This document shows, in pieces, positions 472 to 18,919 of a stretch of DNA of 18,919 nt. How positions within the stretch are numbered: the first letter of the stretch is position 1; the number at the start of each line of letters is the position of its first letter. The notes beneath the pieces are model-generated. The model worked only from the letters and a program-made list of their open reading frames with translations, was not told the DNA's origin and searched no databases. The position numbers were made by a program, and so were the translations under genes. Source of the DNA: a virus (taxonomy: Duplodnaviria > Heunggongvirae > Uroviricota > Caudoviricetes); the IMG/VR virus record IMGVR_UViG_2563366942_000019. The stretch is one strand, 5' to 3'.

Positions 472-1268
472 GTCAAATGCCATTAAATGGAGTCAGTGCT
501 GCGATGCGCGAACGGGTATCGCAGCAGTTAAAAGAAATAGAACGTCGCTATGGCGTGAAAGTGCTGTACGCCTGCGAATCAGGCAGCCGCGGCTGGGGAT
601 TTGCCTCGCCCGATAGCGACTACGATGTACGGTTTTTGTATGTCCATCCGCTGGAATGGTATCTGCGTGTAGAGTCACCGCGCGATGTTATCGAGCTGCC
701 CATCGACGACGAATTAGATGTTTCCGGTTGGGAGTGGCGTAAGGCGCTGGGATTATTGAAAGGCGCGAATCCGACGCTGATAGAATGGCTGGATTCTCCG
801 GTGGTCTATCAACAAGATGAAGAAACGATAACGGCGCTTAAGGCAATGGTCCCAATGTGGTTTTCTTCGTTGCGTGCACGCTGGCATTACTATTCGATGG
901 CGCAGAAAAACTTCCGCGGCTATTTGCAGGGCGATGAAGTTCGACTGAAAAAATACTTTTACGTGCTGCGCCCGCTGCTGGCCGTGCGCTGGGTCGAAGC
1001 GGGTAAAGGCGTGCCGCCAATGCGCTTTGCTGAGTTACTGGCAGGAAGCGAGCTTGATGCGCCGTTACGCGAAGAGATTGACGAACTGCTGGAGCGTAAA
1101 CAGCGAGCGGGGGAGGCGGAATATGGTCCGCGCCGTCCTTTGTTACATGCGTTTATTCGCGCGGAGCTGGCGCGTGGGGAAATTCCACCGATTTTACCGG
1201 ACAGTCGAGATGGAGATGTTCGGGAGCTAGATAATTTGCTGTATCAAACGGTAATGCGCCGGGCATAA
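468..1268 (+). CDS. Predicted Pol-beta-superfamily nucleotidyltransferase (minimal NTase fold with C-terminal helical domain)
   Basis: 266 aa ORF. N-terminal motif ESGSRGWGFASPDSDYDVRF matches the G[SG]...[DE]h[DE]h signature of Pol-beta-type nucleotidyltransferases. ATGA overlap with the upstream SPFH gene indicates one operon. Substrate is unknown. Confidence 0.5.
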   Translation: MSQMPLNGVSAAMRERVSQQLKEIERRYGVKVLYACESGSRGWGFASPDSDYDVRFLYVHPLEWYLRVESPRDVIELPIDDELDVSGWEWRKALGLLKGANPTLIEWLDSPVVYQQDEETITALKAMVPMWFSSLRARWHYYSMAQKNFRGYLQGDEVRLKKYFYVLRPLLAVRWVEAGKGVPPMRFAELLAGSELDAPLREEIDELLERKQRAGEAEYGPRRPLLHAFIRAELARGEIPPILPDSRDGDVRELDNLLYQTVMRRA

Positions 1269-1285
1269 AGCCCGGCGTGATTTAT
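1254..1285 (+). terminator. Stem-loop overlapping the nucleotidyltransferase stop codon, between two convergent genes; possible terminator
   Basis: cgccgggc-ataaa-gcccggcg inverted repeat followed by tgatttatt on the plus strand. The U-tract is only moderate. Confidence 0.3.
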
Positions 1286-1737
1286 TGCTGGTATTGCCAA
1301 CTGCTGACTAAAGCGTACAAGTGATTTGGAGAATAGCGCCAGCTTTCCTTCAGTTGCAGAAATTCAGCACAAAATTCACTGCAAAACAGGCGATCGCGCT
1401 GTTCTTTATTACCGATAATAATTCCTAATGCTCCGCGCCAGTCATATTTTTTGCCATCATGTTTACGGAAAAAAGTTTCCACATCCTGAAGGCTGGCCTG
1501 GAGCGGCAGCATATCCCACTTATCCGCTGGCAATGGCATTATTTTTCCGCGTACACCGCGATCGCGCAGTGATGCGGAGTAACAAAGGTAACTCTTTTCA
1601 CCATGCTTAATGGCTAATTCACAGTGGGAATAATGACCACGTGTGATTTTACGGGTAAGCCAGTCAGCCAGTCGGGCAATACCACGGTGCTCTGTTCGGC
1701 CCTTATAACAAGCGAGCCAGACAGTGGTTTTACTCAT
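1282..1737 (-). CDS. Hypothetical protein, last gene of the tail operon; weak resemblance to permuted papain-like (YaeF/YiiX, NlpC/P60-superfamily) hydrolases
   Basis: 151 aa ORF whose ATG overlaps the stop of the fibre chaperone gene (ATGA at 1734-1737). Contains His-containing motif GHYSHCELAIKHG and, C-terminal to it, CSEFCAEF, reminiscent of the His-then-Cys order and CSE motif of permuted NlpC/P60 enzymes. Assignment is from memory of motifs only. Confidence 0.45.
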   Translation of the reverse strand: MSKTTVWLACYKGRTEHRGIARLADWLTRKITRGHYSHCELAIKHGEKSYLCYSASLRDRGVRGKIMPLPADKWDMLPLQASLQDVETFFRKHDGKKYDWRGALGIIIGNKEQRDRLFCSEFCAEFLQLKESWRYSPNHLYALVSSWQYQQ

Positions 1738-2441
1738 GGTTGCCAGCCTGTTGAATAATCGTAGTCGAGCACCGCCTGAATATCGTCCAGTGCTTCCACC
1801 GCCGCGATATGGTGCTGGGCGTTTGCGAACAAGCGCATATCGTGATCCATGGTGACCGATTCAAACTGGGCAGCGATTTCGTTGGTTAACTCAATCAGAC
1901 CATTATTTTTAGTTTTCCACATTAACCCTGGCGGAATTTTTTTCTCCGCTCCCATTTTTGTGAGTGAAAGCTGTTGGATACGGCTATTTGTATCACTGTG
2001 GAAGTGATGGTTGTTGATGATGATGTAATCGGTTGTGATGGCATCGCGTTGATTTTTGATTGCAGAGTATTTCGCCTCTTTAGCATCGGTTATAGATGGT
2101 TGCCATTTTTCACCATCCCAACGTTCAAAAGAACCTGTCGGGGAAATGACTGTTACATTTTCAGGTAATTGGCCCAATTCTTGAATAATAAGCTGGCTAC
2201 CATCAACTTTGTTATAAACAGTTTGGCCTCGATGATCTTCAATAAGTCTCCATGTTTCATTCTCCCACACTGGAGTAAAACCAGGAACCTTTTCGGGAGG
2301 TGAAATTAATGTGCAATAATTTGGCAAGCCTGTATTAGGTGCAATGTATGCATCAGACTCACCGATATATTCTTGGGAGTCTTGTGAAAAATTATATACA
2401 GTTAGTATTTGAGCTTCATCGGAAAAGGTAAAAGTATTCAT
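1734..2441 (-). CDS. Tail fibre assembly chaperone (Tfa-like)
   Basis: 235 aa ORF immediately downstream of the tail fibre gene and coupled to it by an ATGA overlap (2438-2441). N-terminal region has Tfa-like features (aromatic then Gly/Pro-rich, ...[11 protein letters not shown]...). Position matches Mu U / P2 G. Confidence 0.6.
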
Positions 2442-4078
2442 GCTAGCCTCACAATATAGTTGAATGCGATATTTTTGACGGTGTTTTCGGTGTTGCCGGT
2501 ATTATTAATGGTTAGGGAGTGATTATGGGAACCAAGGGCAATTGAATGCGAATGGGTGCCAATTGAAAGTTCATGTGTATGGCTACCCAATGCGATAGTA
2601 TGTGCATGGGTACCAATGGCTGTAGTATGAGAGTGATCACCTACAGTATCGGTATTAACGTAGTCATAACGAGAGTCACCTATAGAATCAGCGGTTAGTG
2701 CATTGCCACCGTAATCAGCATCACCTTTACATGTTATTTGATGTGAATGGCCCCCTGTGCTGGTCGACGATTTACTTCCGTGATTGAACGACGATGTTGT
2801 CTTAGAACCAAGATCAGAGGCAGATGTCGTTTTGTGTCCAAAATCAAAAGATGATGTTGCCTTTGTCCCTAAATCAGTACTCGAAATACTGCCCGTATGG
2901 TTATGTGATTTAATTCCATCCAGTTCAGTAGATAATATAGCTCGCCCACTGGATGGTTTTCCTTTAATTATCCATCCGCGCATGTCAGGAATAACACCAG
3001 ATGGATATGCAATTCCCAGTTTGGGATAGGAGGCTTTATTAAATGTCTGACCTGTCATCAGAGCGTAGCCTGAAGGTATAGAATCAGATGGCCAAGGAAT
3101 AGGCATCCCTACAGGACAGCTTTCCGCAGCAATAGCCTTATCCATCGCTGCCTTAACAGCGTTCGGCGTTGCAGCTTCCGTCGTACTGGTGCTGTTGGTC
3201 GCATTATTAAGTTTCACGACCCCTTTTTGCGTCAGCGTACCGTCGGGGATACCTGTTATTTGCCCCCAGGCATGGGTATGGCTGGACGGTGCCGCAGCAA
3301 TAGCCTTATCCATCGCTGCCTTAACCGCACTTGGTGTTGCAGCTTCCGTCGTACTGGTGCTATTTGTTGTATTGTTAAGCTTAACGACTCCTTTCTGCGT
3401 CAGTGTACCATCAGGGATACCAGTAATCTGATTCCAGGCATGATTATGACTGGTGGCAGCTTTGCTATTTGCCAGGTCATATGCCGTTTTTACCGCTTTT
3501 GGCGTGGCCGCTTTGGTTTCATCATCGCTATTAGTCGCATTACTCAGCTGCGTAAAACCTTTTTGTGTCAGCGTCGCATCAGGATGATTTCGTGATTGCT
3601 GATGTGTTTTCAACGCGTCATCGACATATTCCCTGGTTGCCACAACGACTGAAGGGTCGATCAAAAGCGTCACCGCATCTGCATTGGTGACTTCCATGAC
3701 CGCGCGTATAACGATTTGCTTACTGGCCCCCGCAGGTAATCGTGGCTTATAGGTTTCCGGGAATTTACCAATAGCGACCAGCGTGCCGTCGGTATCCAGT
3801 AACCCAACTTCGCGTACATACCAGCCTCCGACTTGTTCGGGAATAATCGCTTCTGCGATAACCCAGGCCGGATTATCTGGCGCAATTTTTAATGTATTGA
3901 GCTGACCACGCCAGACCTCATGGACTACTTTGGTCTGACTTTCTGTCGGTTCGATATATTTACCATTACCGTCGCCAACTACCATAGTTTGCAGACGGAT
4001 CTGTTTTTGCTCGGCCAGTGCTGAGGCAATTTTGGCTTTGCCTGCAGCAGTTAATATTGTAAAAAATTCACTTGCCAT
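2438..4078 (-). CDS. Tail fibre protein (Mu S / P2 H-like) with internal 56-aa repeats and His-x-His C-terminal tip
   Basis: Start chosen at the internal ATG (4078-4076) giving [39 protein letters not shown], the conserved N-terminus of Mu/P2-type fibres. The track ORF extends to 4201 but would overlap the upstream gene by about 120 nt. Contains tandem fibre-repeat units ([32 protein letters not shown]) and a C-terminal HxH repeat array. Confidence 0.85.
2500..2650. repeat. Short-period coding repeat encoding five His-x-His units at the fibre C-terminus
   Basis: Translation [44 protein letters not shown], with matching nucleotide periodicity around 2520-2640. Confidence 0.6.
3128..3600. repeat. 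About 2.5 tandem copies of a 168-nt unit inside the tail fibre gene
   Basis: aatagccttatccatcgctgccttaac... recurs at 3131 and 3299 (period 168 nt = 56 codons), with a third degenerate partial copy near 3464-3600. The copies encode the repeated fibre motif. Confidence 0.7.
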
Positions 4079-4080
4079 TA

Positions 4081-4812
4081 TTACTCCGGATATACAGACA
4101 TAATTTCGGTGCTCCAGTATCCTGTGCCGACCTTCATCGGTTGGGATTGTGTTAGTCGATCGGGTTGATAAGGTAGTAGTTGAATATATTCCTCCACACA
4201 ATAACCTGTCGCTAAAAATATTCCAGATGACTGGCTGAGGCTTTCTGCAACAGGAGGCAATACTGTAATGACTTCCCCTCCTTGCATGGCACTGCCAATA
4301 ACTGGTATTGGGCTTCGATTAATAAGCCAAATAACAATGCTTTCCAGCTTTGATCGGACATTTTTATATTCATGAATTAATGTGATAAGTGCATTGAATT
4401 CATCTTCATTTAATCCTTTTTCCTCTAGTGTAATATCAACCTTAAAAAAGTAAGCCTTTCCCCCATATTCAAACCATTCTGAAATAGTTCCTGGTAGCGA
4501 AAGTATTTCCAGTACCCGCCGTACCGCCCAAATCGTTCCTTTATATTTATGCAGCTCAATGGCTTGCTTAATTAACTCGCGCTTCTCCCGCTCATCGGTG
4601 GTAAATAACCAACCTTCCAGCCCCTGAACGTGAAATTGTTCTGCAAGGGCTGGTAATGCCGAAGCATCAACCAGGTCGACCAGATAAACCATCAACGCCG
4701 TCAGATCGAGTTGGGCAAAACGCTCGGCGGCGATGTTTGCCAGAATCGAAAAACGCTCATCGCTGGCAAGCGGCGGCGGTGGCAGCAATTTATCCATCGC
4801 TGACTCCGGCAA
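4081..4812 (-). CDS. Baseplate protein, P2 gpI / Mu gp48-like
   Basis: 243 aa; N-terminal [24 protein letters not shown] matches the LLPP..S...R signature of gpI-family tail proteins. Lies between the gpJ-like and fibre genes as in Mu/P2. Start may instead be at Met6; either way it overlaps the gpJ-like stop. Confidence 0.75.
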
Positions 4813-5905
4813 TCGTGACGTCTATTGCGGTGCATTCCGCCCACTCATGCGCCTGCAAAATACGTTTTGTAGGCATATTCAGCGCAACGTCATAGACGCC
4901 ATCGACCTGTAACACTTTGATTATCTGGTTTGGTACAATGTCCTGCCCCAGATGTTTCTGCCGCTGTTGCGTCCAGAGGCTAATCGCTTTACGCGCCGCA
5001 GCCAGCGTTGTCTCCTGATCGGCGGTGGTAAACAGCGTTAGCTGCGCACGGATCTCATACGGCACTCGAAGAGCGCATTTCGCACTCACTTTGTCGGTCA
5101 GCGGTCGTTTTTTCTCCTTGCTGACTTCTTGTTCAATCTGCGCCAGCAACTCCGTGCCGGGTAGACCATTCAGGGTTAGCGGGTAGATCTCCACGCAGCC
5201 TTCTGGCAATCCCTCGTCCGGCCCCAGTACTGCAACGTCAATAATCGACTGGCTAACAGAAAGCGTATGAAAGCGGTATGCGCCATAGCTGCCCGCATTA
5301 CTAAAGCTTTCTGGTGCCAGTTGGATACGCTGGCGCAATGCGTCATCGCTCTCTTCACCGCAGCCGCCCGTTGACGCAGTCAGGTTGGTTACGTTGATGT
5401 CATAATGACCAATCCTGTCGACCAGTGCGCTAATTTGTGCAGGCTGCCAGCCGTTGCCCTGTTCACCTGCTGCGAGGCTGGTGGCAGGAACGGCGATATG
5501 CAAACTCCTGGCCGGAAGCAGAACATCTTCATCGGTGGCGAACATCACGCTATCAGAGGCACTGGCCCGCGTCCCCTGGGGAATCAGGATATTGCTGGTA
5601 TACGCACTGACGACCGAAAACTGCAACGTCGTTTTTGCCGGTTGTGCAGGCAAACGGTGAACGCCCACCAGCTCCCCTAAATAATCCAGCATTGGCGCGC
5701 GGGAATACGCGACCAGGTTCTGTTTCGCCGCTTCCTGAATGGCGATGCGTACAAGGTTTTCACGATAGGCAAACAGGTCGATGAGCAACCGCTCAGCCTG
5801 TGCCGGATAGAGTTTTTTACCGCTGGCATCTTCATATTGCGCAATCATCTCACTGGTAATTTGCGCAGGATCGCGGTCAATAAAATTGGGTTCGGCTATC
5901 GCCAT
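4790..5905 (-). CDS. Baseplate wedge protein, P2 gpJ / Mu gp47 / T4 gp6-like
   Basis: 371 aa; size, position downstream of the gpW-like gene and overlap with neighbours are typical of baseplate J proteins. Confidence 0.75.
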   Translation of the reverse strand: MAIAEPNFIDRDPAQITSEMIAQYEDASGKKLYPAQAERLLIDLFAYRENLVRIAIQEAAKQNLVAYSRAPMLDYLGELVGVHRLPAQPAKTTLQFSVVSAYTSNILIPQGTRASASDSVMFATDEDVLLPARSLHIAVPATSLAAGEQGNGWQPAQISALVDRIGHYDINVTNLTASTGGCGEESDDALRQRIQLAPESFSNAGSYGAYRFHTLSVSQSIIDVAVLGPDEGLPEGCVEIYPLTLNGLPGTELLAQIEQEVSKEKKRPLTDKVSAKCALRVPYEIRAQLTLFTTADQETTLAAARKAISLWTQQRQKHLGQDIVPNQIIKVLQVDGVYDVALNMPTKRILQAHEWAECTAIDVTIAGVSDG

Positions 5906-6255
5906 AACACCTCCGTTGAGTTGATAACGCCGTCAGCGGCGCGCCATTGCACACGTAACGTCAGATGTTCACCGTCGATTACTGGTGTCACCTTCAGCAA
6001 CCGACAGCGCGGTTCCCACTGGCGGATGGCTTCCACCGACTCCCGTACCACATGCGGGATTGCCCGCTCGATGGGGTAATCGATGTAGTGCCACAAGTTG
6101 CTGCCAAACAGCGGTCTGTGAGGATCACTGCCGCGCGGTGTGCGCAGAATGATGTGTATCGCCTGGTGAATATCATCCAGCCCGCAGACGTATTCTTCAG
6201 GCCGCTGCAAGGCCGGTTGCCAGTGCAGCGTTGAGGGGCGTGTTTTTGTTTTCAT
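5896..6255 (-). CDS. Baseplate protein, P2 gpW / Mu gp46 / T4 gp25-like
   Basis: 119 aa; small gp25/gpW-sized protein immediately upstream of the gpJ-like gene with a 10-nt overlap. Confidence 0.7.
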   Translation of the reverse strand: MKTKTRPSTLHWQPALQRPEEYVCGLDDIHQAIHIILRTPRGSDPHRPLFGSNLWHYIDYPIERAIPHVVRESVEAIRQWEPRCRLLKVTPVIDGEHLTLRVQWRAADGVINSTEVLWR

Positions 6256-6316
6256 GAGGGTATTTTCGCCCTGAACGGGCTGTGGAGATATTAAAGCGAT
6301 TTAGAAAACTGATTGA

Positions 6317-6348
6317 TTAAAAAGAGAAAACCCGCCATCAGGCGGGTT
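6317..6348 (-). terminator. Rho-independent terminator-like hairpin between the spike (V-like) and W-like genes
   Basis: Minus-strand RNA would read aacccgcc-ugau-ggcggguu followed by UUCUCUUUUUAAUC, starting 6 nt after the V-like stop (6356-6354). It sits in a 98-nt gap inside an otherwise tightly packed gene string. Confidence 0.45.
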
Positions 6349-6353
6349 AAAAG

Positions 6354-7055
6354 TCAGTGTGAATGGTGGTTGGAGTTGCCACCGCTGTCCTGCAATGCGC
6401 CGCTGGCCTGAACGTTGCCGATCACGTTGACATTGCCGGTTATCGTGGCTGCGTTACCGATGCCTCCACTTCCTGCCATCCCGCCAAGCCAGGTGAGTTT
6501 TTTCATTACCGTGACGTTGCCAGTAAAGGTGCTCATGGGCGCATCTACCGTCACTGCTGCTGCTTTAACCTCGACCTTAGTGGCGTCGATGCTGACATCG
6601 GTCGCTTTAACATCGACGGTATCGGAAGTCACGGTGACCTGTTGGGCTTTAATCTCAACGTTGGGCGATGTCAGGCAGGTACCGTTGATAACCTCAATCA
6701 CGATTTTCTCGATACCGCCGTTGATCGTCAGCTGGTGCGTGCTGCGGTCATATTCAAACGCTGCGCCATCAGAAAACTGGACGTAACGTTTGTCGCGCGA
6801 GGCTACAGGCGCGGTGTCAACCGTAGAATAAACTGCGCCCAGCACCACGCCATCTTCACCGTTATTGTCCAGCAGAACTTCCACTTGCTCGCCCATATCC
6901 GGTAGCCAGTAGTCTTTATTGTCCTGGGAATTGTGTTGAAGTACCGCAAGCCAGTTGCTCTTCAGATTGTCACACTCTGGAAGCGTGACTCGCACCCGAA
7001 CGCTGGTTTCGTCAATATCGCTGATAATCCCCGTTTGACGGGTTACTCCTTTCAT
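6354..7055 (-). CDS. Baseplate central spike, P2 gpV / Mu gp45-like
   Basis: 233 aa; N-terminal OB-like region followed by a Val/Thr-rich beta-repeat stretch (VTVTSDTVDVKATDVSIDATKVEVKAAAVTVDA), a Gly-rich segment and a terminal ...NSNHHSH, consistent with a spike and its apex. Confidence 0.75.
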   Translation of the reverse strand: MKGVTRQTGIISDIDETSVRVRVTLPECDNLKSNWLAVLQHNSQDNKDYWLPDMGEQVEVLLDNNGEDGVVLGAVYSTVDTAPVASRDKRYVQFSDGAAFEYDRSTHQLTINGGIEKIVIEVINGTCLTSPNVEIKAQQVTVTSDTVDVKATDVSIDATKVEVKAAAVTVDAPMSTFTGNVTVMKKLTWLGGMAGSGGIGNAATITGNVNVIGNVQASGALQDSGGNSNHHSH

Positions 7056-7064
7056 ATTTCCTCC

Positions 7065-8105
7065 TTACTGGCTGGTCGCTGGCCCGCGTGACACGTCGAT
7101 TTCAGTGGTATAGCCGCTGCGCACAAAACTGTGAGTAGATTTATCAATCAGCCACTGACCGGAAATCACGCCAAAATCGGTCAGTTCAATTTTATTGCCC
7201 GCCGTCAGTTCCGGGCAGCCCATCATTGTGAGCGTTCCGGTTTGCTGATATTCGTTGTGGCTGTCGAGTGCAGCGTTGGCCTTTGCCTGTGCTGCGCCAA
7301 CGTCCGTCGCCCGACTGTTCAGTTTTAGCGTGTCGGCACTGGTGCCGACTCCACGGGCAAACGGTTTTTGCTGGCTGTCGTGGGTGTAGATAACCAGTTC
7401 TTTTTTCTTACTATTTTGATGCTGTACGGTGGCGTTTTTGTAGATACGGTTAATGGTATCTTTGAAGGTGAAATGCGAAACGTCTTTGCGGTCGATCTTT
7501 TTCACAGGTGCCAGGCAGCGCAGCGTGGGTAAATGTGAAAAAATCAGCTCTTTCGTCGTCACTTTTACGGCATAACCATATTCACTGGCCAGACGTTTGA
7601 GAAATCCAACATCGGTTTCGCCGTACTGTGTCACCCGGTCAATTGTCAGAGGCTCGATTTTGCCCACCAGCTTTAGGCCGTGAGTTTGTGCGATACGGCT
7701 GGCGATAGCCGAAAGCGTCGTTTCTTCAAAGCCCTGGCTGTTACGGGTGCGCAGCGCCTGATTGACGGAAGTGGCGATGCCATCAATATTTACCGTAGAA
7801 GGTGGCGCTGAAATATCAATTTTATCAATAATATACTGACCACAATCGAGCAGCTTTTCTCCCTGATACCCCATATGCAGCGCCAGCGTATCGCCTTTGC
7901 CGGGATACCACTCTTTTATCCAGCGTCCATCTGTGTCATCCAGTGTAATTGCGATGGTATCCGACTCGTTTTTGATGCTGTCGTGGTAACTGATGCTGGT
8001 GACATAGGGTGTGATGTCATAAGTGATATCTTTATGCCCATACCAGAGGGTAAAAATGGGCGTGAGTGTGGCAAAGACGCCACCAGTTACGCTTATCTCA
8101 GCCAT
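7065..8105 (-). CDS. Baseplate hub protein, P2 gpD / Mu gp44 / T4 gp27-like
   Basis: 346 aa; position between the X-like and V-like genes and size match the gpD/late-control-D family. Confidence 0.75.
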   Translation of the reverse strand: MAEISVTGGVFATLTPIFTLWYGHKDITYDITPYVTSISYHDSIKNESDTIAITLDDTDGRWIKEWYPGKGDTLALHMGYQGEKLLDCGQYIIDKIDISAPPSTVNIDGIATSVNQALRTRNSQGFEETTLSAIASRIAQTHGLKLVGKIEPLTIDRVTQYGETDVGFLKRLASEYGYAVKVTTKELIFSHLPTLRCLAPVKKIDRKDVSHFTFKDTINRIYKNATVQHQNSKKKELVIYTHDSQQKPFARGVGTSADTLKLNSRATDVGAAQAKANAALDSHNEYQQTGTLTMMGCPELTAGNKIELTDFGVISGQWLIDKSTHSFVRSGYTTEIDVSRGPATSQ

Positions 8106-8302
8106 GGTGGGATCTCCGATAAGGTTTTATTAACGGAAATGACCGGAATAATGAGCTGAATACCGGAAGGCAGTACCGGGTAAATGGCTACATGTGGATT
8201 GGCGGCGATTATGCGTTCATAAGCCAGTGCATCACCGTAGTAATGCCATGCCAGGTTATCCCAGCGTTCGCCATCGGTGGTGATATGTTCAAGGTATCGC
8301 AT
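8093..8302 (-). CDS. Tail protein X-like (LysM-like fold)
   Basis: 69 aa; GERWDNLAWHYYGDALAYERIIAANPHVAIYPVLPSGIQLIIP fits the gpX pattern G.tld.i..ryYG......e.vl.aNP.l......LP.G..v.lP. Confidence 0.7.
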   Translation of the reverse strand: MRYLEHITTDGERWDNLAWHYYGDALAYERIIAANPHVAIYPVLPSGIQLIIPVISVNKTLSEIPPWLR

Positions 8303-9255
8303 TACCAGCTCCTGGTAATGGTTACGGCAGCAAGCTGGCTCACTGCGGGAGTGGTTTGTTGTACCGTTGTACGTGCCTGCTCAACCAACGACGTGGCTTT
8401 ATCGAACGTCGCTTCGGCGATGTCGCTGGTAATGTCGTCGAAAAGCGCCTGAGCATGGTCAACCAGCGTACTGGCGTCATTGGCGCAGTCCCGGATACCT
8501 GGCATGTTACCCAGTAAAGCTTTAATCTGCGCCGACAACGCTTTTGGTAGGCCTGCCAGCGTTTGCAGATCCATTGGCTGTTTAAACAGGGTTTCGATGG
8601 CGTCGATTGTCTTTTTCAATGACGTAATTATCTTTTCACACTTTTCTTTTAACGCTTTGGCCTCTTTAATCATTGCTTTCACTTTTGCCACCGTTTTTTT
8701 AATATCTTCAATGGATTGTGTCAGTTCATCCAGCATCTCTTTGGCCTTACGCATACCTTCTTCAATGGCGTTTAATATCTGATCAAACCAGGACTCCACC
8801 TTGTCGGGAAAATCGCTCGCCTTTTCCTCGATGTTGGGCTCCTGGGTGGTAATCGCCGGAGGTAAAAGTGGATTTTTAGGATCGCCGGTGTACTCCTGGA
8901 GCGACATCGTTCCGTTTTGGGCAATCACATTGCCCCAGGGATCGGTGTGCTGGTGGGTGGCGGTTAGCTCCGTAATCACAAACCAGCCGCGATAATCGCC
9001 ATTGCCAAATACCAGTGCCATCGCCTTGTGAGCAAGCATGGCTTCACGCAGTCGGTTCAGCTCTGTTGTGGGCTGGCAAAACTGGCTGTGCAGGGAAAAT
9101 TCCAGCGCCAGCATATCCAGCTTATCGCCAATAAACTGCACGCCGGGTTTGCCTTCTATACGGGCATGTGTGGCGTAATCCACGCCCATTGTGCTTTTAA
9201 AGCCGTCCCAGAATGTGACAACCTTAAATTCAATCTCTCCTAAAACGGCATACAT
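8302..9255 (-). CDS. Tail protein with gpU-like N-terminal domain and Lys/Glu-rich coiled-coil C-terminal extension (Mu gp43/N-like)
   Basis: 317 aa; N-terminus MYAVLGEIEFKVV... resembles P2 gpU. The C-terminal ~180 aa are heptad-like and K/E/A-rich (EEGMRKAKEMLDELTQSIEDIKKTVAKVKAMIKEAKALKEKCEKIITSLKK...). ATGA overlap with the tape-measure stop at 9255. Confidence 0.55.
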   Translation of the reverse strand: MYAVLGEIEFKVVTFWDGFKSTMGVDYATHARIEGKPGVQFIGDKLDMLALEFSLHSQFCQPTTELNRLREAMLAHKAMALVFGNGDYRGWFVITELTATHQHTDPWGNVIAQNGTMSLQEYTGDPKNPLLPPAITTQEPNIEEKASDFPDKVESWFDQILNAIEEGMRKAKEMLDELTQSIEDIKKTVAKVKAMIKEAKALKEKCEKIITSLKKTIDAIETLFKQPMDLQTLAGLPKALSAQIKALLGNMPGIRDCANDASTLVDHAQALFDDITSDIAEATFDKATSLVEQARTTVQQTTPAVSQLAAVTITRSW

Positions 9256-11630
9256 CAGGCATACCCCCGGCGCTGTTGTTGCGCCATTACGTCGTTAATC
9301 ATTCTTTCCAGTTCGCGTTTACTCATCGTCAACACGTTCTGAATCTCTTTAGTGGTGTTTTGTCCGTTTCCCTGCACGGTAATCTGTGGCGAAAAATTTA
9401 CCTGGACTTTTCCTGAGGAACGGGAGGGTAGCGTCGCCGGTTTGGTTACGGATTTACCAGGTAAAGAGGCAGATACGGGTTTGGCGGCTGTATTTTTTGC
9501 CGCTGGCGCCGATGACGGCGTAGCCGTTTTGCCGGATGGCGCGAGTTGTTTGCCCACCGGCGGCGTTAAAATCGCACCGGCAACGCCTGGAACAACGGTC
9601 GCGGGGGAGACGGATGCGGTATTAGTCGTGCTTGTAATAGCTGTAGCCGATCCTTCTGTACTAATACCCATCGTGGTTTTTAGCCAGTCTGGGATGGCGT
9701 TTTTTACCTGATCAATAATGCCTTTCAGAGCGGGGAAGGCATTCATTATGCCGTCAACCAGACTGCCCAGAAGATTGCTGCCGAACTCGCTAAAACTTGC
9801 AGGCATCTCGACACCAAACCAATTCATCACACTGGAAAAGGCGCTATAGAACAACTCCAGCGGTGACCAGTCGAGAATCAACCGACAAATTCCTGCAATG
9901 CCGCCGTCAAAGGCCGTGGTGATACGTTGCCAGATGGTCGAAAAGAACCTGGAGATAGGCTCCCAGTTGCGACAAATCAGATAAGCAGCGCCCGCAATCG
10001 CAGTGATGACCAGACCAATGGGATTCATCAATAAAACCCTACCCAACCAGAAGACGGTCTGACCTACCTGTTTCAGTGCGCCAATCAGGCCACGACCAAG
10101 CAGTTGCATTAGCCATTTTGCGCTGCCACCCAATGACTTAACCGCTGATAGCATCTTACTTGCCCCGCCTGTGAGCGCCAGACTTGCCTTGACTTTCAGG
10201 AAGATATCGACCAGACGAATAAACGGCGAGGTGATGAGGTTCGCGCCCAGCTTTAAAACATTCAGCGCGCCGTTAAACAGCCAAACCGCCCCGACGATTT
10301 TCGCAATGTTTTGCACCAGCGCCGGATGTTCGCGTAGCCAGGCGCTGAACTGGCGAATAACCGGCGTAAGGCTTTGTGCCAGCTCGCCAATCGCCGGCAT
10401 AAGCTGCAAACCAATGCTGAGCCATAAATCATTTAATGCCAGCTGTAACGCTTTAGTCTGTTCAATGGGCGAGGCCATTTGCGCAGAAAAGTCAGCGTTA
10501 ATCAGATTCTTGCTGGTGGCTTGCATGGCAGAGGCTTTTAACTGGCGATATTCCTCCATATTCGCCAGCATAGGTGCCAGGAATTCCACCGTTTGCGCAT
10601 CGCCGAACATTTCGCCCAGATTAAATTGCGTTACCATCGATTGCAGCGCATTGCTGCGAGCAGATAAATCTTCAATCTGCATAGTGCGTTTGAAGGTGTC
10701 GAGGATCGCCGGATTCATCTTCTCAAGCTGCATTTGTACGATATGAGTCATGGCTTCGCTAACACCCATACCGTTTTGCTGATGTTCAAGCAGAGAGCCT
10801 TGCAGATCGACGCCCTGGCTGGCGAACCAGCTATCGGTTTTTTTCGAAAAGGTGGTTTGCAGAAAGTGGTCGAAATTCTCCGCCGCCGCACTGGCGCTGG
10901 CCCCGTTTTTCATGGCGATCTGCATGGTGGCGCTCAGTTCAGCCATACCTTCCAGACCCTGAGCGCCGGTTTTACCTGCAAATTTCTCTATCCACTGCGT
11001 TTGTTCAGCAATGGCAGGCCCACCGCTTTTGCTAATGCCGTACATCATGTTTTGCGCGGCGTGGAAATTTTCCAGGGCAATATTCAGTCGATCATGGGTT
11101 GCGAGCGCGGCATTCGCCCATGTTTCAGCACTTTCGCGCGTGGCGGTGGCAGCTTTGGCGATCTCCGGCATATAACGGTTGAGATCCTGTATCGACGACA
11201 AATTGCCTTCGATCAGCGTTTGGGCTGCGTTCTGTAAGGTGGTCTGCTGCTGGTTAAAATCCATGCTCCAGTCGCGCAGATTAAGGCTGAGCGTCTCGCG
11301 GGTTGTAGCATTCATCCCACCTTTGGTCGCCATATTGACCATGTTGTCCTGAAACTCATACGGCAACTTCCAGTCGGGGGCTTCAACATTGAATACTTTG
11401 CTAAATTGCCCGGCAAATGTTTGGGTTTTCTCCATCAGATTAGCGCGGCTGCGGCTATTTTCCTCCAGGCGGAGAGCGGAATCGGCAAGCTGCTGCGTTA
11501 GTTTGATAACTGTCGCCTGCTGAGTAGAGAGAGTTAACAATGTTCTGGCGTTGAGTGAGCCGTAACGGGCTATTGCCTGCGTCAACGTCTCATTACGCGC
11601 CTGAAGCTGGGTAATAATATCGTTGGCCAA
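9255..11630 (-). CDS. Tail tape measure protein
   Basis: 791 aa; largest ORF; helical Ala/Gln/Leu-rich body with hydrophobic segments and a Ser/Thr/Pro/Ala-rich low-complexity C-terminus. Located after the tube and chaperone genes as in all contractile tails. Confidence 0.85.
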   Translation of the reverse strand: MANDIITQLQARNETLTQAIARYGSLNARTLLTLSTQQATVIKLTQQLADSALRLEENSRSRANLMEKTQTFAGQFSKVFNVEAPDWKLPYEFQDNMVNMATKGGMNATTRETLSLNLRDWSMDFNQQQTTLQNAAQTLIEGNLSSIQDLNRYMPEIAKAATATRESAETWANAALATHDRLNIALENFHAAQNMMYGISKSGGPAIAEQTQWIEKFAGKTGAQGLEGMAELSATMQIAMKNGASASAAAENFDHFLQTTFSKKTDSWFASQGVDLQGSLLEHQQNGMGVSEAMTHIVQMQLEKMNPAILDTFKRTMQIEDLSARSNALQSMVTQFNLGEMFGDAQTVEFLAPMLANMEEYRQLKASAMQATSKNLINADFSAQMASPIEQTKALQLALNDLWLSIGLQLMPAIGELAQSLTPVIRQFSAWLREHPALVQNIAKIVGAVWLFNGALNVLKLGANLITSPFIRLVDIFLKVKASLALTGGASKMLSAVKSLGGSAKWLMQLLGRGLIGALKQVGQTVFWLGRVLLMNPIGLVITAIAGAAYLICRNWEPISRFFSTIWQRITTAFDGGIAGICRLILDWSPLELFYSAFSSVMNWFGVEMPASFSEFGSNLLGSLVDGIMNAFPALKGIIDQVKNAIPDWLKTTMGISTEGSATAITSTTNTASVSPATVVPGVAGAILTPPVGKQLAPSGKTATPSSAPAAKNTAAKPVSASLPGKSVTKPATLPSRSSGKVQVNFSPQITVQGNGQNTTKEIQNVLTMSKRELERMINDVMAQQQRRGYA

Positions 11631-11819
11631 AATTGTTTCTCTTTAAATATTGATAATGGCCCGCTGGTTATTTTTCTAAAAAAAGGGGCAGGGAAGAAAT
11701 AAACCTGACGGGCTTGGGAAACTCGCAGACATCAGGTCTGCGAGTCATATTCGATTTTTATTTGGGCGCTGGCTTCATCCAGCCAGTTGCTAAAGTCATC
11801 GACGGTAAGGGCGTCTATC

Positions 11820-12137
11820 TCACTGGGTGGAAAGCGAAACCATCTCGCCAGTAACGCCATCGCTTGCCATAACAGTGGCGGATTCTGTAGCCACGCTAAG
11901 CATGGATTGAAATCGTTTCTGCAATGCCTGGTAATCCAGCAAATCCATTTCAGCTAAATCTTCTGGCACCAGTCCGGTCATTGCCGCCATTAGCGGTTCA
12001 TCCCACTCTTCAGGTTTTTCGCTGATCCGGCGCGCGTTGCGCATATCTTTTACTTTCAGGCGACGTAATTGCAGAGTGTTAATTACGTCTCCCGCCGCTG
12101 AAGTAAACGGGAACTGTAAGATATAATGTTCTTTCAT
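11820..12137 (-). CDS. Tail assembly chaperone (P2 gpE / Mu gp41-like)
   Basis: 105 aa acidic protein between the tube and tape-measure genes, the conserved slot for the tape-measure chaperone. The -1 frame stays open for about 33 codons past its stop. Confidence 0.55.
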   Translation of the reverse strand: MKEHYILQFPFTSAAGDVINTLQLRRLKVKDMRNARRISEKPEEWDEPLMAAMTGLVPEDLAEMDLLDYQALQKRFQSMLSVATESATVMASDGVTGEMVSLSTQ

Positions 12138-12162
12138 TTTGTGTCCTTATTTATTTTGCAAA

Positions 12163-12182
12163 GTTCGGGGCCGTAGCCCCGA
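12163..12182 (-). other. Stem-loop directly after the tail tube gene stop (possible attenuator or RNA-stabilising hairpin)
   Basis: ttcggggc-cgta-gccccgaa perfect 8-bp GC-rich stem between the tube stop (12188) and chaperone start (12137). No clear U-tract on the minus strand. Confidence 0.4.
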
Positions 12183-12187
12183 ATAAC

Positions 12188-12712
12188 TTAGCCACCGATG
12201 TTATTGCGATAGGTACTTAATTGATCCACACCATTAACCCGGAAAATATTGGCCATATAATCAAGTTCAAGCAGCGTTTCACCATCAACTACTTGTTTAA
12301 TATAAGTGCAACCAAAGGCGCTGCTGAATTCCGGGTTTTCATTCTGTTTAAATGTGCCCAGTGGATTCTTTTTAAACATCACGGTTAAATGTGTCACTAG
12401 CGCTAATTGATTCGCTTTCCCCTGGGAGTTATAGCAATCAATACTGGAGCGGCACTGTAATGCAACCGCCTGCCACGGGTTTGCCGTTTTACGCATTACG
12501 TCCTGATAGAAGGAGTTCCATTTAATTTCGCCCTCCAGTTTATCGAAACCCGCCGGGAGTTCGATTTTACCCACCATGCCCAGTGCTTTATGCTCCTGCA
12601 TAATTAAACTGACATCCGGCAATTTAATTTCGGTTGCACGACCTAAAAGGTTATTACCATCGAGATAAATATTGGCGTTGGTAATACGGTTAATTTGAAT
12701 TTTTCCAGCCAT
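12188..12712 (-). CDS. Tail tube protein (P2 FII / Mu M-like)
   Basis: 174 aa; size and position immediately downstream of the sheath gene (1-nt overlap at 12712). Confidence 0.8.
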   Translation of the reverse strand: MAGKIQINRITNANIYLDGNNLLGRATEIKLPDVSLIMQEHKALGMVGKIELPAGFDKLEGEIKWNSFYQDVMRKTANPWQAVALQCRSSIDCYNSQGKANQLALVTHLTVMFKKNPLGTFKQNENPEFSSAFGCTYIKQVVDGETLLELDYMANIFRVNGVDQLSTYRNNIGG

Positions 12713-14142
12713 TAGCTATTGCTCTCCAGAGAGACTAAATATTCAGAAGTAATTTCAGTTTCAAACGTCAGACGTTCCAGCGGCGGCGGCGGGGTGAATT
12801 TATAGCTCAGCAATAAATGCCCAGCGCTGAGTTCAGTCGGTGAATTTCGCGCCGGATCGTACCAGCATTCAAAGCCAAGCAGTGCGCCGTCGGCAATCAG
12901 CTTACGGCCCCAGGTATTTACCGATTCGGTCAGGGCATCAATCAGCGCCTGATTAATCGGCATATCAATATACTGCTGACTGAAATAACGGATTGACTCA
13001 TTAATTACATCGCCTGTCCGGCGGACGTTTTCAAAGTTACGCATATGGGTCACGGTAGGCCACGCTGCAGTGCGGTTGCCCCACAAGCGCAGACCAGAGC
13101 CGTAACTATTGAAAATAGTGGTAATGCCGTTTTCGTTTAGCTGATTCACTTCGCTTTGTGGATCATCAATCATTGCGGAAAGCGAACGTTCAATACCGGT
13201 AATACCCTGAATTTCTTGGTTTGAGTTGCTCCACCAGAAACCTTTTTCGAGGTCTACTTTGGCACGTAGCCCGGCAGCGCGCGAAGAGAGCGGTTCGAGA
13301 ACTTCTTGGTTAGTGATGCCATCGTAAACTTTGACGTGTGGGTAACATAAACGCGCACGATCAGAGCTGGTGTTGAAGTTGATAGCCCCTTGCGAACCGC
13401 GTCCTGCCAATACCTGCTGGAATGTCGTCCCAATCGGGGCATCAATGTAGGTAATCGCACCAAGTTTTTCCGCTTGTGCAATCAGCTCTGTAGTTACTGA
13501 TTTTTGCGTACAGAACACGGGAGCAAGCAGGATTTTGGCGTAGAAACCATACAGGTTATAGGTGTCCTGTAGCAGTTCCATCCCCGTGCGATCGCCTGCG
13601 GTATTAACGGCACCGATAATATCGGCTGCGGTGACCTTTGTAGGGTCGCACCAGGAATAATAGGCGCAAACTTTCGCACCAGGAGGAATGTCGGCTCCTG
13701 TACGGGTAATTATGCCTGTTTGTTCATCTACGCTAAATGCTGCGGTGTTATAGGTTGATGAATTTGATGAAGAGGGCTTTAGAACCACGTTACGCACATT
13801 GCGGTGAGTGAGTTTCGCCTGGTTGTTAGCATCAAAAGTGATACTTTCATTGCTGATGTTGGAGCCATGTTTTGCCGGATCCAGCACGTTAATCACCACC
13901 ACCGTACCGGCACCGTGGTCATAAATCGCCTTCAGTGCCTGTGGGATCGTAAAGTTAGTCTGAGTCGAACCAAACTGCGCAGCATCGCTTTCAGAAAGGC
14001 ATAATGTTGGTTTATTTACCGGACCACAGGGGGCCGTACCGATTAAAGCGATGACGGCGGATTTTACCGCTTTAACCGGACGCGGGCCGGTTTCAATTTC
14101 AATGGTTTCTACACCGTGCAGATAATTAGCTGCCATGTACAA
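12712..14142 (-). CDS. Contractile tail sheath protein (P2 FI / Mu L-like)
   Basis: 476 aa; N-terminus ...NYLHGVETIEIETGPRPV resembles the conserved sheath N-terminus; size and position are typical. Confidence 0.85.
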   Translation of the reverse strand: MYMAANYLHGVETIEIETGPRPVKAVKSAVIALIGTAPCGPVNKPTLCLSESDAAQFGSTQTNFTIPQALKAIYDHGAGTVVVINVLDPAKHGSNISNESITFDANNQAKLTHRNVRNVVLKPSSSNSSTYNTAAFSVDEQTGIITRTGADIPPGAKVCAYYSWCDPTKVTAADIIGAVNTAGDRTGMELLQDTYNLYGFYAKILLAPVFCTQKSVTTELIAQAEKLGAITYIDAPIGTTFQQVLAGRGSQGAINFNTSSDRARLCYPHVKVYDGITNQEVLEPLSSRAAGLRAKVDLEKGFWWSNSNQEIQGITGIERSLSAMIDDPQSEVNQLNENGITTIFNSYGSGLRLWGNRTAAWPTVTHMRNFENVRRTGDVINESIRYFSQQYIDMPINQALIDALTESVNTWGRKLIADGALLGFECWYDPARNSPTELSAGHLLLSYKFTPPPPLERLTFETEITSEYLVSLESNS

Positions 14143-14323
14143 TTTCCTCTCCGTTATTTTGTTCTTCCTGAGTGATGACAGGAGTCAGATGATTGCGGGC
14201 AATCATGGTCATGACCCACTCGTTGTCTTCTGGCAGATCAATTTCACTGTTCGGCCACAATAAGATTTCTTGTCCGTCGGCAAGGGTGACGCCGCTTGCC
14301 GGGCCGTTGTAGATGTATTTCAT
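14126..14323 (-). CDS. Small tail-associated protein (Mu gp37-like)
   Basis: 65 aa ORF overlapping the sheath start by 17 nt and the upstream gene by 4 nt, in the position of Mu gp37 just upstream of the sheath gene. Confidence 0.45.
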   Translation of the reverse strand: MKYIYNGPASGVTLADGQEILLWPNSEIDLPEDNEWVMTMIARNHLTPVITQEEQNNGEEIVHGS

Positions 14324-14775: not shown

Positions 14776-14882
14776 ATAGGCTGTACCTTAATTACCGCTC
14801 ACTTCGTTATCGTTGAGATATATTCTGAAGCAGTGAAGGTGAAGAATCTTTTAATGTGATTTAGAGAAAAAATTGAATGGTT
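14776..14882 (-). promoter_or_regulatory. Putative promoter region for the tail operon (possibly activator-dependent)
   Basis: 107-nt AT-rich gap between the terminator and the first tail gene. No convincing sigma70 -35/-10 pair was found by eye, as would be expected for a Mor/C-dependent late promoter. Confidence 0.3.
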
Positions 14883-14920
14883 AAAAAAATCCCCACCCTT
14901 ACATAAGGGTGGGGATTTTT
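14883..14920 (-). terminator. Rho-independent (bidirectional) terminator after the lysis cassette
   Basis: ccccaccct-tacata-agggtgggg 9-bp stem flanked by aaaaaaa (14883-14889) and attttt (14915-14920). On the minus strand the stem is followed by a U7 tract. Abuts the stop of the 14920-15234 gene. Confidence 0.7.
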
Positions 14921-15234
14921 CAATAACTGCCACGTTGTAACAGCTCGATTTTGCTATATAAGGCATCCAGCTTCGCTTCTAATACTGCTTGCCCACGAAG
15001 ATAATCTTCTCTGCGGACATAATGCAGCGGAAGCTCGGCACGAAATTCGAGAAATTCTCTTTCCAGTTTCGACCAACTTGTTTCTGATTCCCTGCGGGCA
15101 TTTTCCAGAGACTCAAAACGCTCATTAAGTCGTTTTTCAATTTGTGCTAACAGCAGTTTTCCGGCAGCAAACATTAATCCAACGAAGGAAAGCATAAGGG
15201 AGATCACTTCCCAAAAATCGATACTGAGTTTCAT
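14920..15234 (-). CDS. Lysis-cassette membrane protein: N-terminal transmembrane helix plus coiled-coil (i-spanin-like, or Mu gp25 releasin-like)
   Basis: 104 aa; hydrophobic segment WEVISLMLSFVGLMFAAGKLLLA followed by a charged heptad region (EKRLNERFESLENARRESETSWSKLEREFLEFRAEL). Good RBS (agagggg) upstream; lies 12 nt after the transglycosylase stop. Confidence 0.45.
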   Translation of the reverse strand: MKLSIDFWEVISLMLSFVGLMFAAGKLLLAQIEKRLNERFESLENARRESETSWSKLEREFLEFRAELPLHYVRREDYLRGQAVLEAKLDALYSKIELLQRGSY

Positions 15235-15246
15235 CGGCCCCTCTGA

Positions 15247-15852: not shown

Positions 15853-15854
15853 CA

Positions 15855-16142: not shown

Positions 16143-16437
16143 ACGGTATCTCCTGATAAGTGAGCGTTTAGTGTCGCCAGAACCCGCCAGTGAAGAATGA
16201 AAAAAGCTTTAATAAATAAGTTTAAAAAATAGATTCTCTATAAATGAACATGCCCGCTAATAAATCCACTCAGCAATTAAAGAGCAAAAGGTGACCTCGC
16301 GAATAAGCGCGTCATTATGCAGGGAAAAGATGATGGTGAATCGTAGGAATAGTCAGTAGTTATTTGATTTTTAAAGTTTGTTTAAGAAAGTCAGCGACTG
16401 TGAGGGAAACGATCTTTTTACACTACAGGTAAAAATA
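16143..16437 (-). promoter_or_regulatory. AT-rich region upstream of the lysis cassette, interrupted at its distal end by the IS
   Basis: 295-nt AT-rich non-coding stretch between the IS left end and the first lysis gene; presumed lysis/late promoter region. Confidence 0.3.
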
Positions 16438-16480
16438 ATACTGTATGTGCATGGGTCTTCCCCGATCATGGTGGGAAGAC

Positions 16481-17701: not shown

Positions 17702-17719
17702 ATAATTTCATTCTGAAGC

Positions 17720-18238: not shown

Positions 18239-18352
18239 AAGAATTCCCTCTCATGTAAAAAGAGACACCATAAAGGTACTGTGTGGTGTTTGAAAATCAC
18301 TCAATTATGTACCACCCACCACAACAGGGGAAGACCCATGTGCATACAGTAT

Positions 18353-18571: not shown

Positions 18572-18919
18572 ATGATACGAAAATCAAAAGAGATGGCCCG
18601 GACACCGGAGATCATTAACGACCTGGCTTTTCATGCATCGCAAGTTCTGATTGAAAGCATCAATCTCGACAGTTCATCGGCAGAAAATGTGGGCTTTGCC
18701 ATTGCCGACCGAATGATGCGTAACTGGGGCGGACAAAGCATTTATTTCCCTAAGGGGATCTCCGGACGAGCATCGGAGCGTGACTACCAAATCTATAGCG
18801 AGTGCGATGGGCGCAACTACGCCGAATTAGCGAAGAAATATAATCTGACGCTGCAATGGATTTATAAGATTGTGAAACGCGTACATGCGGAAAAGCAACA
18901 GCGCCGCAGTAATTCGTAA
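18572..18919 (+). CDS. Mor/C-family transcriptional activator (Mu middle/late operon regulator-like)
   Basis: 115 aa complete ORF (stop at 18917-18919). C-terminal ...ERDYQIYSECDGRNYAELAKKYNLTLQWIYKIVKR is the helix-turn-helix region characteristic of the Mor/C activator family. Confidence 0.75.
   Translation: MIRKSKEMARTPEIINDLAFHASQVLIESINLDSSSAENVGFAIADRMMRNWGGQSIYFPKGISGRASERDYQIYSECDGRNYAELAKKYNLTLQWIYKIVKRVHAEKQQRRSNS

Follow-up and report, generated by a model that had tools for sequence, protein, structure and literature searches.

The stretch of DNA analysed here, below called the window, has a length of 18,919 nucleotides and is 99.8–100% identical to the chromosome of E. coli MS 21-1, CE10 and IAI39. 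In IAI39 the gene cluster that it carries is located between yjbD and lysC. The cluster is present in about 195–197 of 5426 complete E. coli genomes (about 3.6%), and Salmonella has an orthologous cluster in the same chromosomal position (STM4198–STM4219). All the tail genes of the window are on the minus strand, and from high to low coordinates their order is holin, lytic transglycosylase and membrane protein, followed by gp37, a small ORF, sheath, tube, chaperone, tape measure, U, X, D and V, and finally W, J, I, fibre, fibre-assembly protein and one further ORF. On the plus strand, adjoining lysC, there is a gene for a Mor-family activator, separated from the holin gene by a copy of ISEc53 and a ClbS-like gene. 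Genes for head proteins, a transposase or a repressor were not found in the window, and it was therefore regarded as a head-less, tailocin-like cluster. By classification its nearest complete phage relatives belong to Bcepmuvirus, e.g. Escherichia phage PhiKM, which encodes one Mor/C homologue; the Mor-family protein of the window is 44% identical to this "late transcription protein C". In the searchable literature, where older phage papers are poorly covered, no account was found that treats the E. coli/Salmonella cluster as a tailocin, and the paper on an "ST131 tailocin" concerns a different, P2-like prophage. There was no evidence of SOS control from a LexA-box scan of the window (CTGT-N8-ACAG, one mismatch allowed), which gave 3 matches as compared to 5.2 expected, none of them near the regulatory regions. 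The three genes of most concern here are:

18572..18919, plus strand: Mor-family transcription activator gene, annotated (WP_000619864 in IAI39), Pfam Mor PF08765 with 129 bits; the window ends 2 nt short of the gene end
6354..7055, minus strand: spike gene V (baseplate assembly protein V), an ORF with a RefSeq annotation at the identical E. coli locus and Pfam Phage_base_V; last gene of the proposed upstream unit
5896..6255, minus strand: W (GPW/gp25 wedge protein), an ORF supported by RefSeq annotation and Pfam; first gene of the proposed downstream unit

Between the stop codon of V (TGA, 6354–6356) and the ATG of W (6255–6253), positions 6256–6353 are non-coding, and no small ORF fits into these 98 nt. 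As the original prediction had it, the gap after the spike gene holds a GC-rich hairpin followed by a U-tract, both on the coding strand:

6329..6348, minus strand: terminator hairpin AACCCGCC-TGAT-GGCGGGTT, a stem of 8 bp, 6 of them G-C, with a loop of 4 nt, starting 5 nt past the V stop
6319..6328, minus strand: U/T-tract TTCTCTTTTT, directly 3' of the hairpin; the T-tract is kept in Superficieibacter

With the UU that closes the stem included, the tract reads GGGUUUUCUCUUUUU in RNA from the minus (coding) strand, and on the plus strand no T-tract accompanies the hairpin at 6329–6348. The folding energy is −15.3 kcal/mol (z −5.2), none of 200 shuffled sequences was equally stable, and the site came out as the top minus-strand terminator-like site in a terminator scan. 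With a loose terminator pattern the window shows no enrichment (26 matches as compared to 21 expected). With strict criteria, that is at least 8 pairs, at least 6 G-C pairs and a T-rich tail, only three loci are found in the whole 18.9-kb window (1255–1279, 6329–6348 and 14884–14921), where simulations gave a mean of 0.34. All three are situated at gene-block boundaries, and together with their number this implies that the V|W hairpin is more than a chance structure. The junction is at least 96% identical across 195 E. coli genomes. In seven E. coli variants spanning that range the hairpin and the T-tract, as well as the dyad and the hexamer described further down, are identical, and the substitutions in the gap are confined to the stretch between dyad and hexamer. 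No known Rfam family was recognised in the gap; a scan of 6000–6600 gave only RyhB, at chance level (18.9 bits against a threshold of 55, E = 0.67). Taken by itself, and judged by its form, the V|W terminator appears ordinary, a standard intrinsic terminator. A terminating ribosome close to a hairpin could lower the termination efficiency, and since this hairpin starts so near the stop codon of V, termination may be only partial.

According to the original prediction, all other gene junctions from sheath to fibre are overlaps or gaps of 0–13 nt. This does not agree with the gene map, where a gap of 50 nt with a hairpin lies between tube and chaperone, and where the 189 nt between chaperone and tape measure consist of a coding frameshift extension, another hairpin and about 100 non-coding nt. 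Besides the one at V|W, these hairpins are:

12158..12192, minus strand: hairpin without U-tract in the gap after the tube gene, −20.2 kcal/mol, z −4.8
11720..11746, minus strand: hairpin where the chaperone frameshift extension ends, −20.6 kcal/mol, with a weak U-tract and about 100 non-coding nt to the tape-measure start
14884..14921, bidirectional in shape: second terminator AAAAATCCCCACCC-TTATGTAA-GGGTGGGGATTTTTTT, −26.9 kcal/mol

A gap with a stable hairpin is thus found elsewhere as well, and what remains of the idea that V|W is the only such place is the proper U-tract, which in the tail gene string is present at the V|W hairpin and not at the tube and chaperone hairpins. It was also proposed that the V|W hairpin could be an attenuator that sets stoichiometry, and for this we found no specific support at the junction. 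V and W are both low-copy parts of the baseplate, as known from P2 and Mu, and such an attenuator is more plausibly sought in the hairpin that follows the tube gene, whose product is a high-copy part.

The tube and chaperone hairpins also indicate that stable structures without good U-tracts are used inside the tail gene string. It is conceivable that the V|W hairpin, being so close to a stop codon, is one more of these, i.e. a partial attenuator or a 3'-end or mRNA-stabilising structure in one long operon, and that W is expressed by read-through with no internal promoter. Most relatives do not have a terminator at V|W, so read-through must occur there. We regard this explanation as improbable. 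A stoichiometric step between two proteins of similar copy number would have no obvious purpose, and the sequence immediately upstream of W, which is described below, does not fit easily with a single operon.

To compare the junction, 80 loci encoding relatives of W were taken from species-representative genomes, and the gene order U-X-D-V-W-J-I is kept in all of them. An identical hairpin is found in one locus only (L002), which is essentially E. coli. In two Superficieibacter species the stem is the same but the loop differs (ACCCGCC-GCAAC-GGCGGGT), and a T-tract is present in a gap of 97–99 nt. Phytobacter and Dryocola have only the 5' half of the Superficieibacter-type hairpin, followed by inserts which in our reading resemble REP or ERIC sequences. 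In most other lineages, among them Xenorhabdus, Photorhabdus, Pectobacterium, Pantoea, Burkholderia and Pseudomonas, the V|W gap is 45–63 nt long and holds a putative promoter block but no terminator, and in about a dozen lineages there are V|W inserts of 0.35–1.6 kb. From this distribution the hairpin appears to be a recent, lineage-specific addition in the E. coli/Superficieibacter clade, and its absence in most relatives implies that it was added late, can be dispensed with and does not define the split.

The cargo in these inserts is always located between the V stop and the promoter block, never between the promoter block and W. In Salmonella the cargo is gtrABC, flanked by a repeated REP-like hairpin, and in other lineages it encodes a DpnII/MboI-type restriction endonuclease, AbiJ_NTD4, DUF4145 and CV_2116-like proteins. 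A likely reason why V|W repeatedly accepts cargo is that the junction is a natural boundary between transcription units. A hot spot for gtrABC and for restriction, Abi and DUF4145 genes, with REP-like or ERIC-like sequences at V|W in Phytobacter, Dryocola and Salmonella, could also suggest that the hairpin is a functionless relic of recombination or of a mobile element, e.g. a palindrome of the REP kind or a scar left by cargo that has been lost, and V is indeed far more diverged than W between close relatives (74–78% identity as compared to 91–95%). Such a relic would, on the other hand, have to explain why stem and T-tract are invariant in the seven aligned E. coli variants, why Superficieibacter keeps the stem with a changed loop, and why the U-tract is on the coding strand only. 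Furthermore, the arrangement of a terminator followed by a promoter is not unique to V|W. It is also found upstream of gp37, where the 14884–14921 terminator comes after the lysis genes and immediately upstream of a promoter-like site, and where the pairing of the hairpin is preserved by compensatory changes in Salmonella; in PhiKM a smaller hairpin lies immediately ahead of the promoter site of chaperone E. With all this against it, a mere relic is very unlikely.

The promoter block next to W has a much wider distribution than the hairpin. The last 50–55 nt or so before the W ATG are conserved in about 77 of the 80 loci (71 labelled and 6 unlabelled), in gamma- and beta-proteobacteria (Enterobacterales, Burkholderiales, Pseudomonas, Chromobacterium and others), and about 55 nt could be aligned almost without gaps over 59 distinct sequences. 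In the consensus of the block, yTAAA-N4-TTTAA-TAT(C) is followed by about 20 variable nt and then by a hexamer flanked by two complementary GC-rich arms, the second of which leads up to the ATG. The hexamer is found as GATACT, AATACT, GAAAAT, GACACT or CACGAT, and in Pseudomonas the half-sites of the dyad have the variant ATTAAAAG. In the window the block contains:

6287..6304, minus strand: dyad CTAAA-TCGC-TTTAA (6304..6291) followed by TATC (6290..6287), the proposed site of the Mor-family activator
6262..6267, minus strand: −10-like hexamer GAAAAT, with 6 nt between its end and the W ATG, invariant in the E. coli variants
6257..6272, minus strand: weak inverted repeat AGGG (6272..6269) and CCCT (6260..6257), which brackets the hexamer

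The A in position 2 of the hexamer (−11) and the T in position 6 (−7) are invariant columns in the 59 distinct sequences, and in a sigma-70 −10 element it is these two bases that are most important. There is no −35 hexamer in the gap, where the −35 region reads TATCTC. An ordinary constitutive promoter could be ruled out because a scan with the sigma-70 consensus found no −35/−10 pair in the gap. The −35 region is instead overlapped by the dyad, whose centre is 30.5 nt upstream of the hexamer, or at about −42.5 if the predicted +1 is A6255. Late promoters of the P2 Ogr type have a TGT-N12-ACA dyad near −55, and a P2-like, Ogr-dependent promoter was ruled out by the minus-strand sequence of the gap, which contains no TGT. 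The late promoters of Mu have a −10 hexamer, no typical −35 element, and an imperfect dyad of 16 bp, centred at −43.5, which binds a dimer of C (PMC2582627 and a bioRxiv preprint). The block upstream of W fits this Mor/C promoter class in every feature that can be tested on sequence, the absolute position of the dyad being predicted from the presumed start. We found no description of a late promoter or motif of the BcepMu type in the searchable literature, which is weak support for novelty since many older phage papers fall outside it.

If the block is a promoter, the same motif could be expected at other late operons. A weight matrix was made from the W-upstream regions of 53 sequences, with the window and its five closest relatives left out, and the scores were compared rank by rank with those of 200 first-order Markov simulations. 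The top three matches in the window are upstream of W, gp37 and the holin gene. The W-upstream region scored 30.1 bits, as compared to a maximum of 17.1 in the simulated windows. The other two sites are:

about 14822..14865, minus strand: gp37-upstream promoter-like site, CTAAA-TCAC-ATTAA (14864..14851) and CAGAAT (14827..14822), with the spacing of the W site
about 16170..16213, minus strand: holin-upstream promoter-like site, TTAAA-GCTT-TTTTC (16212..16199) and GACACT (16175..16170), with the spacing of the W site but weaker

The gp37-upstream site, rank 2 with 7.4 bits, has a score that was reached at this rank in none of the 200 simulations, and no other place in the window matches the W-upstream region as well without gaps. 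The holin-upstream site scored −3.4 bits as the third match and is not significant over the whole window. Between E. coli and Salmonella, the half-sites and hexamers of all three sites are kept (CAGAAT/CAAAAT at gp37, GACACT/GATACT at holin), while the 4-nt spacer of the dyad and the region from −31 to −13 diverge. The Mor-family protein of the window is a candidate activator of all three. In PhiKM, where both strands were scanned, the five best matches are all intergenic and on the coding strand, and at each rank none of the 200 simulations reached the score:

PhiKM, coding strand, upstream of W: 43.7 bits
PhiKM, coding strand, upstream of the first lysis gene: 32.1 bits
PhiKM, coding strand, upstream of the tail chaperone E: 29.1 bits
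PhiKM, coding strand, upstream of the DNA adenine methylase (dam): 19.9 bits
PhiKM, coding strand, upstream of the head protease/scaffold gene: 14.4 bits

A second site upstream of the chaperone gene recurs in many other related loci. Taken together, these matches appear to define a late-promoter motif of Bcepmuvirus-like phages. The division into two transcription units, as originally predicted, thereby gains support from the comparison, mainly through a conserved, probable activator-type promoter directly downstream of the hairpin that had not been seen earlier; the terminator, missing in most relatives, does not hold as its defining feature.

In nearly all relatives, exactly 6 nt separate the end of the hexamer from the W ATG. 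With the hexamer as −10 element, transcription would be expected to start at the A of the ATG (6255), and the mRNA of W would probably be leaderless. In agreement with such a start, a Shine-Dalgarno core (at least 4 nt, between −16 and −4) is absent upstream of W in 58 of the 59 relatives. The W of E. coli has no Shine-Dalgarno sequence and a weak anti-SD duplex, but the energy of this duplex over 22 nt (−3.7 kcal/mol) hardly differs from that of the transglycosylase gene (−3.4) or gp37 (−3.9) and was dropped as a W-specific signal, which is why the positional test of the core was adopted. The loci that lack the motif, L076 and L078 (Arsenophonus and a Plautia symbiont), have a V-W gap of 20 nt with GGGAGG. 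It is only at W that the hexamer abuts the start codon. The other sites in PhiKM are 25–54 nt before the ATG, and in the window the distance from hexamer to start is 46 nt for gp37 and 27 nt for the holin gene. The dRNA-seq tables of B. cenocepacia J2315 (PMC4603805, supplementary file 3) contain no late-gene start sites in the BcepMu prophage and are uninformative on late starts because this prophage is silent.

These observations also bear on the possibility of one long operon with W expressed by read-through. A W gene that has no Shine-Dalgarno sequence except in the two motif-less relatives would be poorly served by such an arrangement, and the invariant A and T of the hexamer, the dyad, and the recurrence of both at four other late operons of PhiKM are hard to explain without a promoter.

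The hexamer is placed between two GC-rich arms which are complementary in most relatives, for instance GGGGGC-GATACT-GCCCCC. In the window this stem has 4 bp, whereas in most relatives it has 6–7 bp and an energy of −10 to −14 kcal/mol. It is possible to regard the block before W as an RNA element, a hairpin whose loop is conserved and which lies immediately 5' of the AUG, that controls the translation of W on a polycistronic RNA, e.g. via a binding protein, and not as a promoter; the structured initiation region of T4 gene 25 and the control of Mu mom by Com are loose parallels. The region folds better than shuffled sequences in 46 of 59 relatives (mean z −2.45), and the covariation of the stem is 0.296 as compared to 0.144 in shuffled or slid controls, with none of 500 shuffles as high, although the Pectobacterium group is one column out of register and GC-rich arms pair readily by chance. 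Covariation of this kind is unexpected for a plain promoter and hints at a role on the RNA level. Since the support from covariation is moderate and part of the alignment is out of register, we have not treated the stem as a demonstrated RNA structure. The only invariant positions in the "loop" are 2 and 6, which is the signature of a sigma-70 −10 element, and the dyad and hexamer are present at other operons that have leaders of 19–48 nt and no stem. An RNA element would also leave the dyad, 30 nt upstream, unaccounted for. The stem of the window is short, with a rival hairpin, GCCC-GUUCA-GGGC, predicted in its place, and in the Pseudomonas, Chromobacterium and Lysobacter lineages the stem is weak or absent. 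That the block is an RNA element instead of a promoter is for these reasons highly improbable. The two models are compatible, however. A transcript that starts at the ATG would not include the stem, which would then be present in read-through RNA only, and it is on this RNA that the stem could act.

The interpretation that we find likely, with a probability of about 0.72, is that the gap consists of an intrinsic terminator and an activator-dependent promoter that divide two late units of a head-less tail cluster derived from a Bcepmuvirus, and that the mRNA of W is probably leaderless. The hairpin and U-tract (6348..6319, minus strand) would end, at least in part, the transcript of gp37, sheath, tube, tape measure, U, X, D and V. 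The remaining 50 nt would function as an activator-dependent sigma-70 promoter of the type found in phage Mu under Mor/C control. A dimer of the Mor-family protein would bind CTAAA-N4-TTTAA near −43 and replace the −35 element, and the RNA polymerase would use GAAAAT as −10 element and start on the A of the W ATG or a neighbouring base, giving a probably leaderless transcript of W, J, I, fibre and chaperone. The terminator would shield the W promoter from read-through, and insulation of an activator-dependent promoter from upstream transcription seems a reasonable function for it.

A more far-reaching version, which is tentative and which we consider rather doubtful, is that in the whole family of Bcepmuvirus-like phages and tail clusters W is translated only from a leaderless mRNA made from the Mor/C-type promoter, that the GC stem in read-through RNA silences the W start, which lacks a Shine-Dalgarno sequence, and that the terminator came later as an insulator. 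If true, the synthesis of W, and perhaps that of J via translational coupling, would be gated by the firing of the promoter and not by the abundance of the transcript. The terminator of E. coli and Superficieibacter would then remove a read-through that is useless and interfering.

The proposed division gives a regulatory map for a chromosomal tail cluster, with one Mor-family activator, three promoter-like sites and two internal terminators. It also predicts a leaderless mRNA for a structural gene, conserved across two classes of proteobacteria. The Mor-family gene and the three sites would be obvious handles for inducing or engineering these particles.

In comparison with known systems, the terminator is of a standard type. 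It resembles the canonical Rho-independent terminators of E. coli in its G+C-rich stem of 8 bp, its tetraloop, its U-rich tail, and its position just past a stop codon on the coding strand. It differs from them in that the U-tract is broken by two C residues and in that the hairpin is only 5 nt from the stop. As a place for cargo, V|W is similar to the moron sites of temperate phages, such as those with gtrABC cassettes for O-antigen modification in Salmonella prophages, since it likewise accepts autonomous cassettes while the tail genes stay intact. The site in the window differs in being empty, with terminator and promoter only.

The promoter appears to belong to the Mor/C class of Mu, with half-sites and a position of its own. 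The closest counterpart is the C-dependent PP of Mu, annotated at 27287–27353, which is also an internal late promoter within a string of tail and baseplate genes, and a gene of the Mor family likewise lies beside the cluster of the window. We read Mu PP as GTTA-N7-TAAC located 31 nt upstream of TATCCT, and by this reading the spacing between dyad and hexamer is the same as in the W site to within 0.5 bp. The half-sites are different, TTAAA-N4-TTTAA here as compared to GTTA-N7-TAAC in our reading of PP, and as they differ from the Mor/C sites of Mu, it is the family membership and the geometry that carry the assignment of the activator. Mu PP lies within gene N, with the spike gene two genes further downstream, while the W site comes after the spike gene. 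The wedge gene of Mu overlaps the spike gene and is provided with a ribosome binding site, whereas W here has no Shine-Dalgarno sequence. The hexamer of the W site, in contrast to that of PP, abuts the start codon, from which the leaderless mRNA is predicted.

In P2 the homologous tail genes are likewise split into separately promoted late units, the operons PV (V-W-J-I-H-G) and PF (FI-FII-E-T-U-D), both of which need the phage activator Ogr. The order in the window is the F-block, V and W, and the break therefore falls after V and not before it as in P2. The activator is also of another kind, the Mor/C family here as compared to the zinc-finger Ogr family in P2.

The junction between the spike gene V and the wedge gene W (GPW/gp25) is a hot spot for cargo. 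Loci of this kind among the related loci that were fetched, and the inverted repeat that lies before W, are:

L090 (Salmonella) 12455-15779, and L011, L018, L019, L025, L057, L058, L061 and L069: cargo at the V|W junction
window 6257-6272, columns 47-65 of the alignment of W-upstream regions: GC-rich inverted repeat around the -10-like hexamer upstream of W

In the cargo-bearing loci the predicted W promoter motif, a dyad with its -10-like hexamer, is always found downstream of the cargo. The inverted repeat at this hexamer is conserved in most relatives and shows some covariation. The cargo in Salmonella is gtrABC, with a repeated REP-like hairpin on its flanks, and in other genera it is a DpnII/MboI REase-domain gene, AbiJ_NTD4 genes, DUF4145 genes or a CV_2116-like gene. 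Of the terminator hairpin that follows V, Phytobacter and Dryocola retain the 5' half (L003 5824-6001, L004 5742-6001), and after it come inserts that by eye resemble REP and ERIC elements.

The tail and lysis genes form a head-less, Bcepmuvirus-like cluster (window 1282-18919; also in L001 and in L090/L091), and the E. coli cluster encodes its own Mor-family activator. It is located between yjbD on one side and lysC on the other. Among complete E. coli genomes about 3.6% carry it, and Salmonella STM4198-STM4219 is its ortholog at the same chromosomal site. No description of the cluster as a tailocin was found in the literature searched. Two features lie between holin and mor:

window 16481-18238: ISEc53 transposase gene and ClbS/DUF1706 gene, between the putative holin promoter region and mor (E. 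coli)
window 16371-16385, minus strand: palindrome TTAAA-CAAAC-TTTAA in the holin-mor intergenic region

Salmonella is without the transposase and ClbS/DUF1706 genes, and holin and mor are directly divergent there. The half-sites of the palindrome are of the late-promoter type, but the spacer is 5 nt. It is conserved in Salmonella and could serve Mor as a further binding site or as one for autoregulation.

Further hairpins were observed in the window:

14884-14921: strong, bidirectional, terminator-shaped hairpin between the lysis genes and gp37 (-26.9 kcal/mol)
12158-12192: stable hairpin, no good U-tract, 3' of the tube gene
11720-11746: stable hairpin, no good U-tract, 3' of the chaperone frameshift extension
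1255-1279: 10-bp G+C-rich hairpin between the last tail-cluster ORF and the convergent nucleotidyltransferase gene

Compensatory substitutions in Salmonella preserve the pairing of the first. The second and third may be mRNA-stabilising or attenuating structures behind high-copy genes. The last delimits the cluster distally; its T-tail is on the plus strand only. The tape-measure gene has an annotated TTG start with a poor SD, preceded by about 100 non-coding nt.

In the phage relatives the late-promoter motif occurs once more, in front of the gene for the tail chaperone:

L082 (phage PhiKM) 23675-23718; L015 4561-4604; about 50-175 in L016, L017, L021, L023 and L029-L037: motif copies upstream of the chaperone gene

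This copy is absent from the window and from Salmonella, where the 50-nt gap between tube and chaperone has only a hairpin. One predicted late-promoter site also precedes a DNA adenine methylase gene of PhiKM (L082 3815-3858), an arrangement reminiscent of the mom promoter of Mu, which depends on C.
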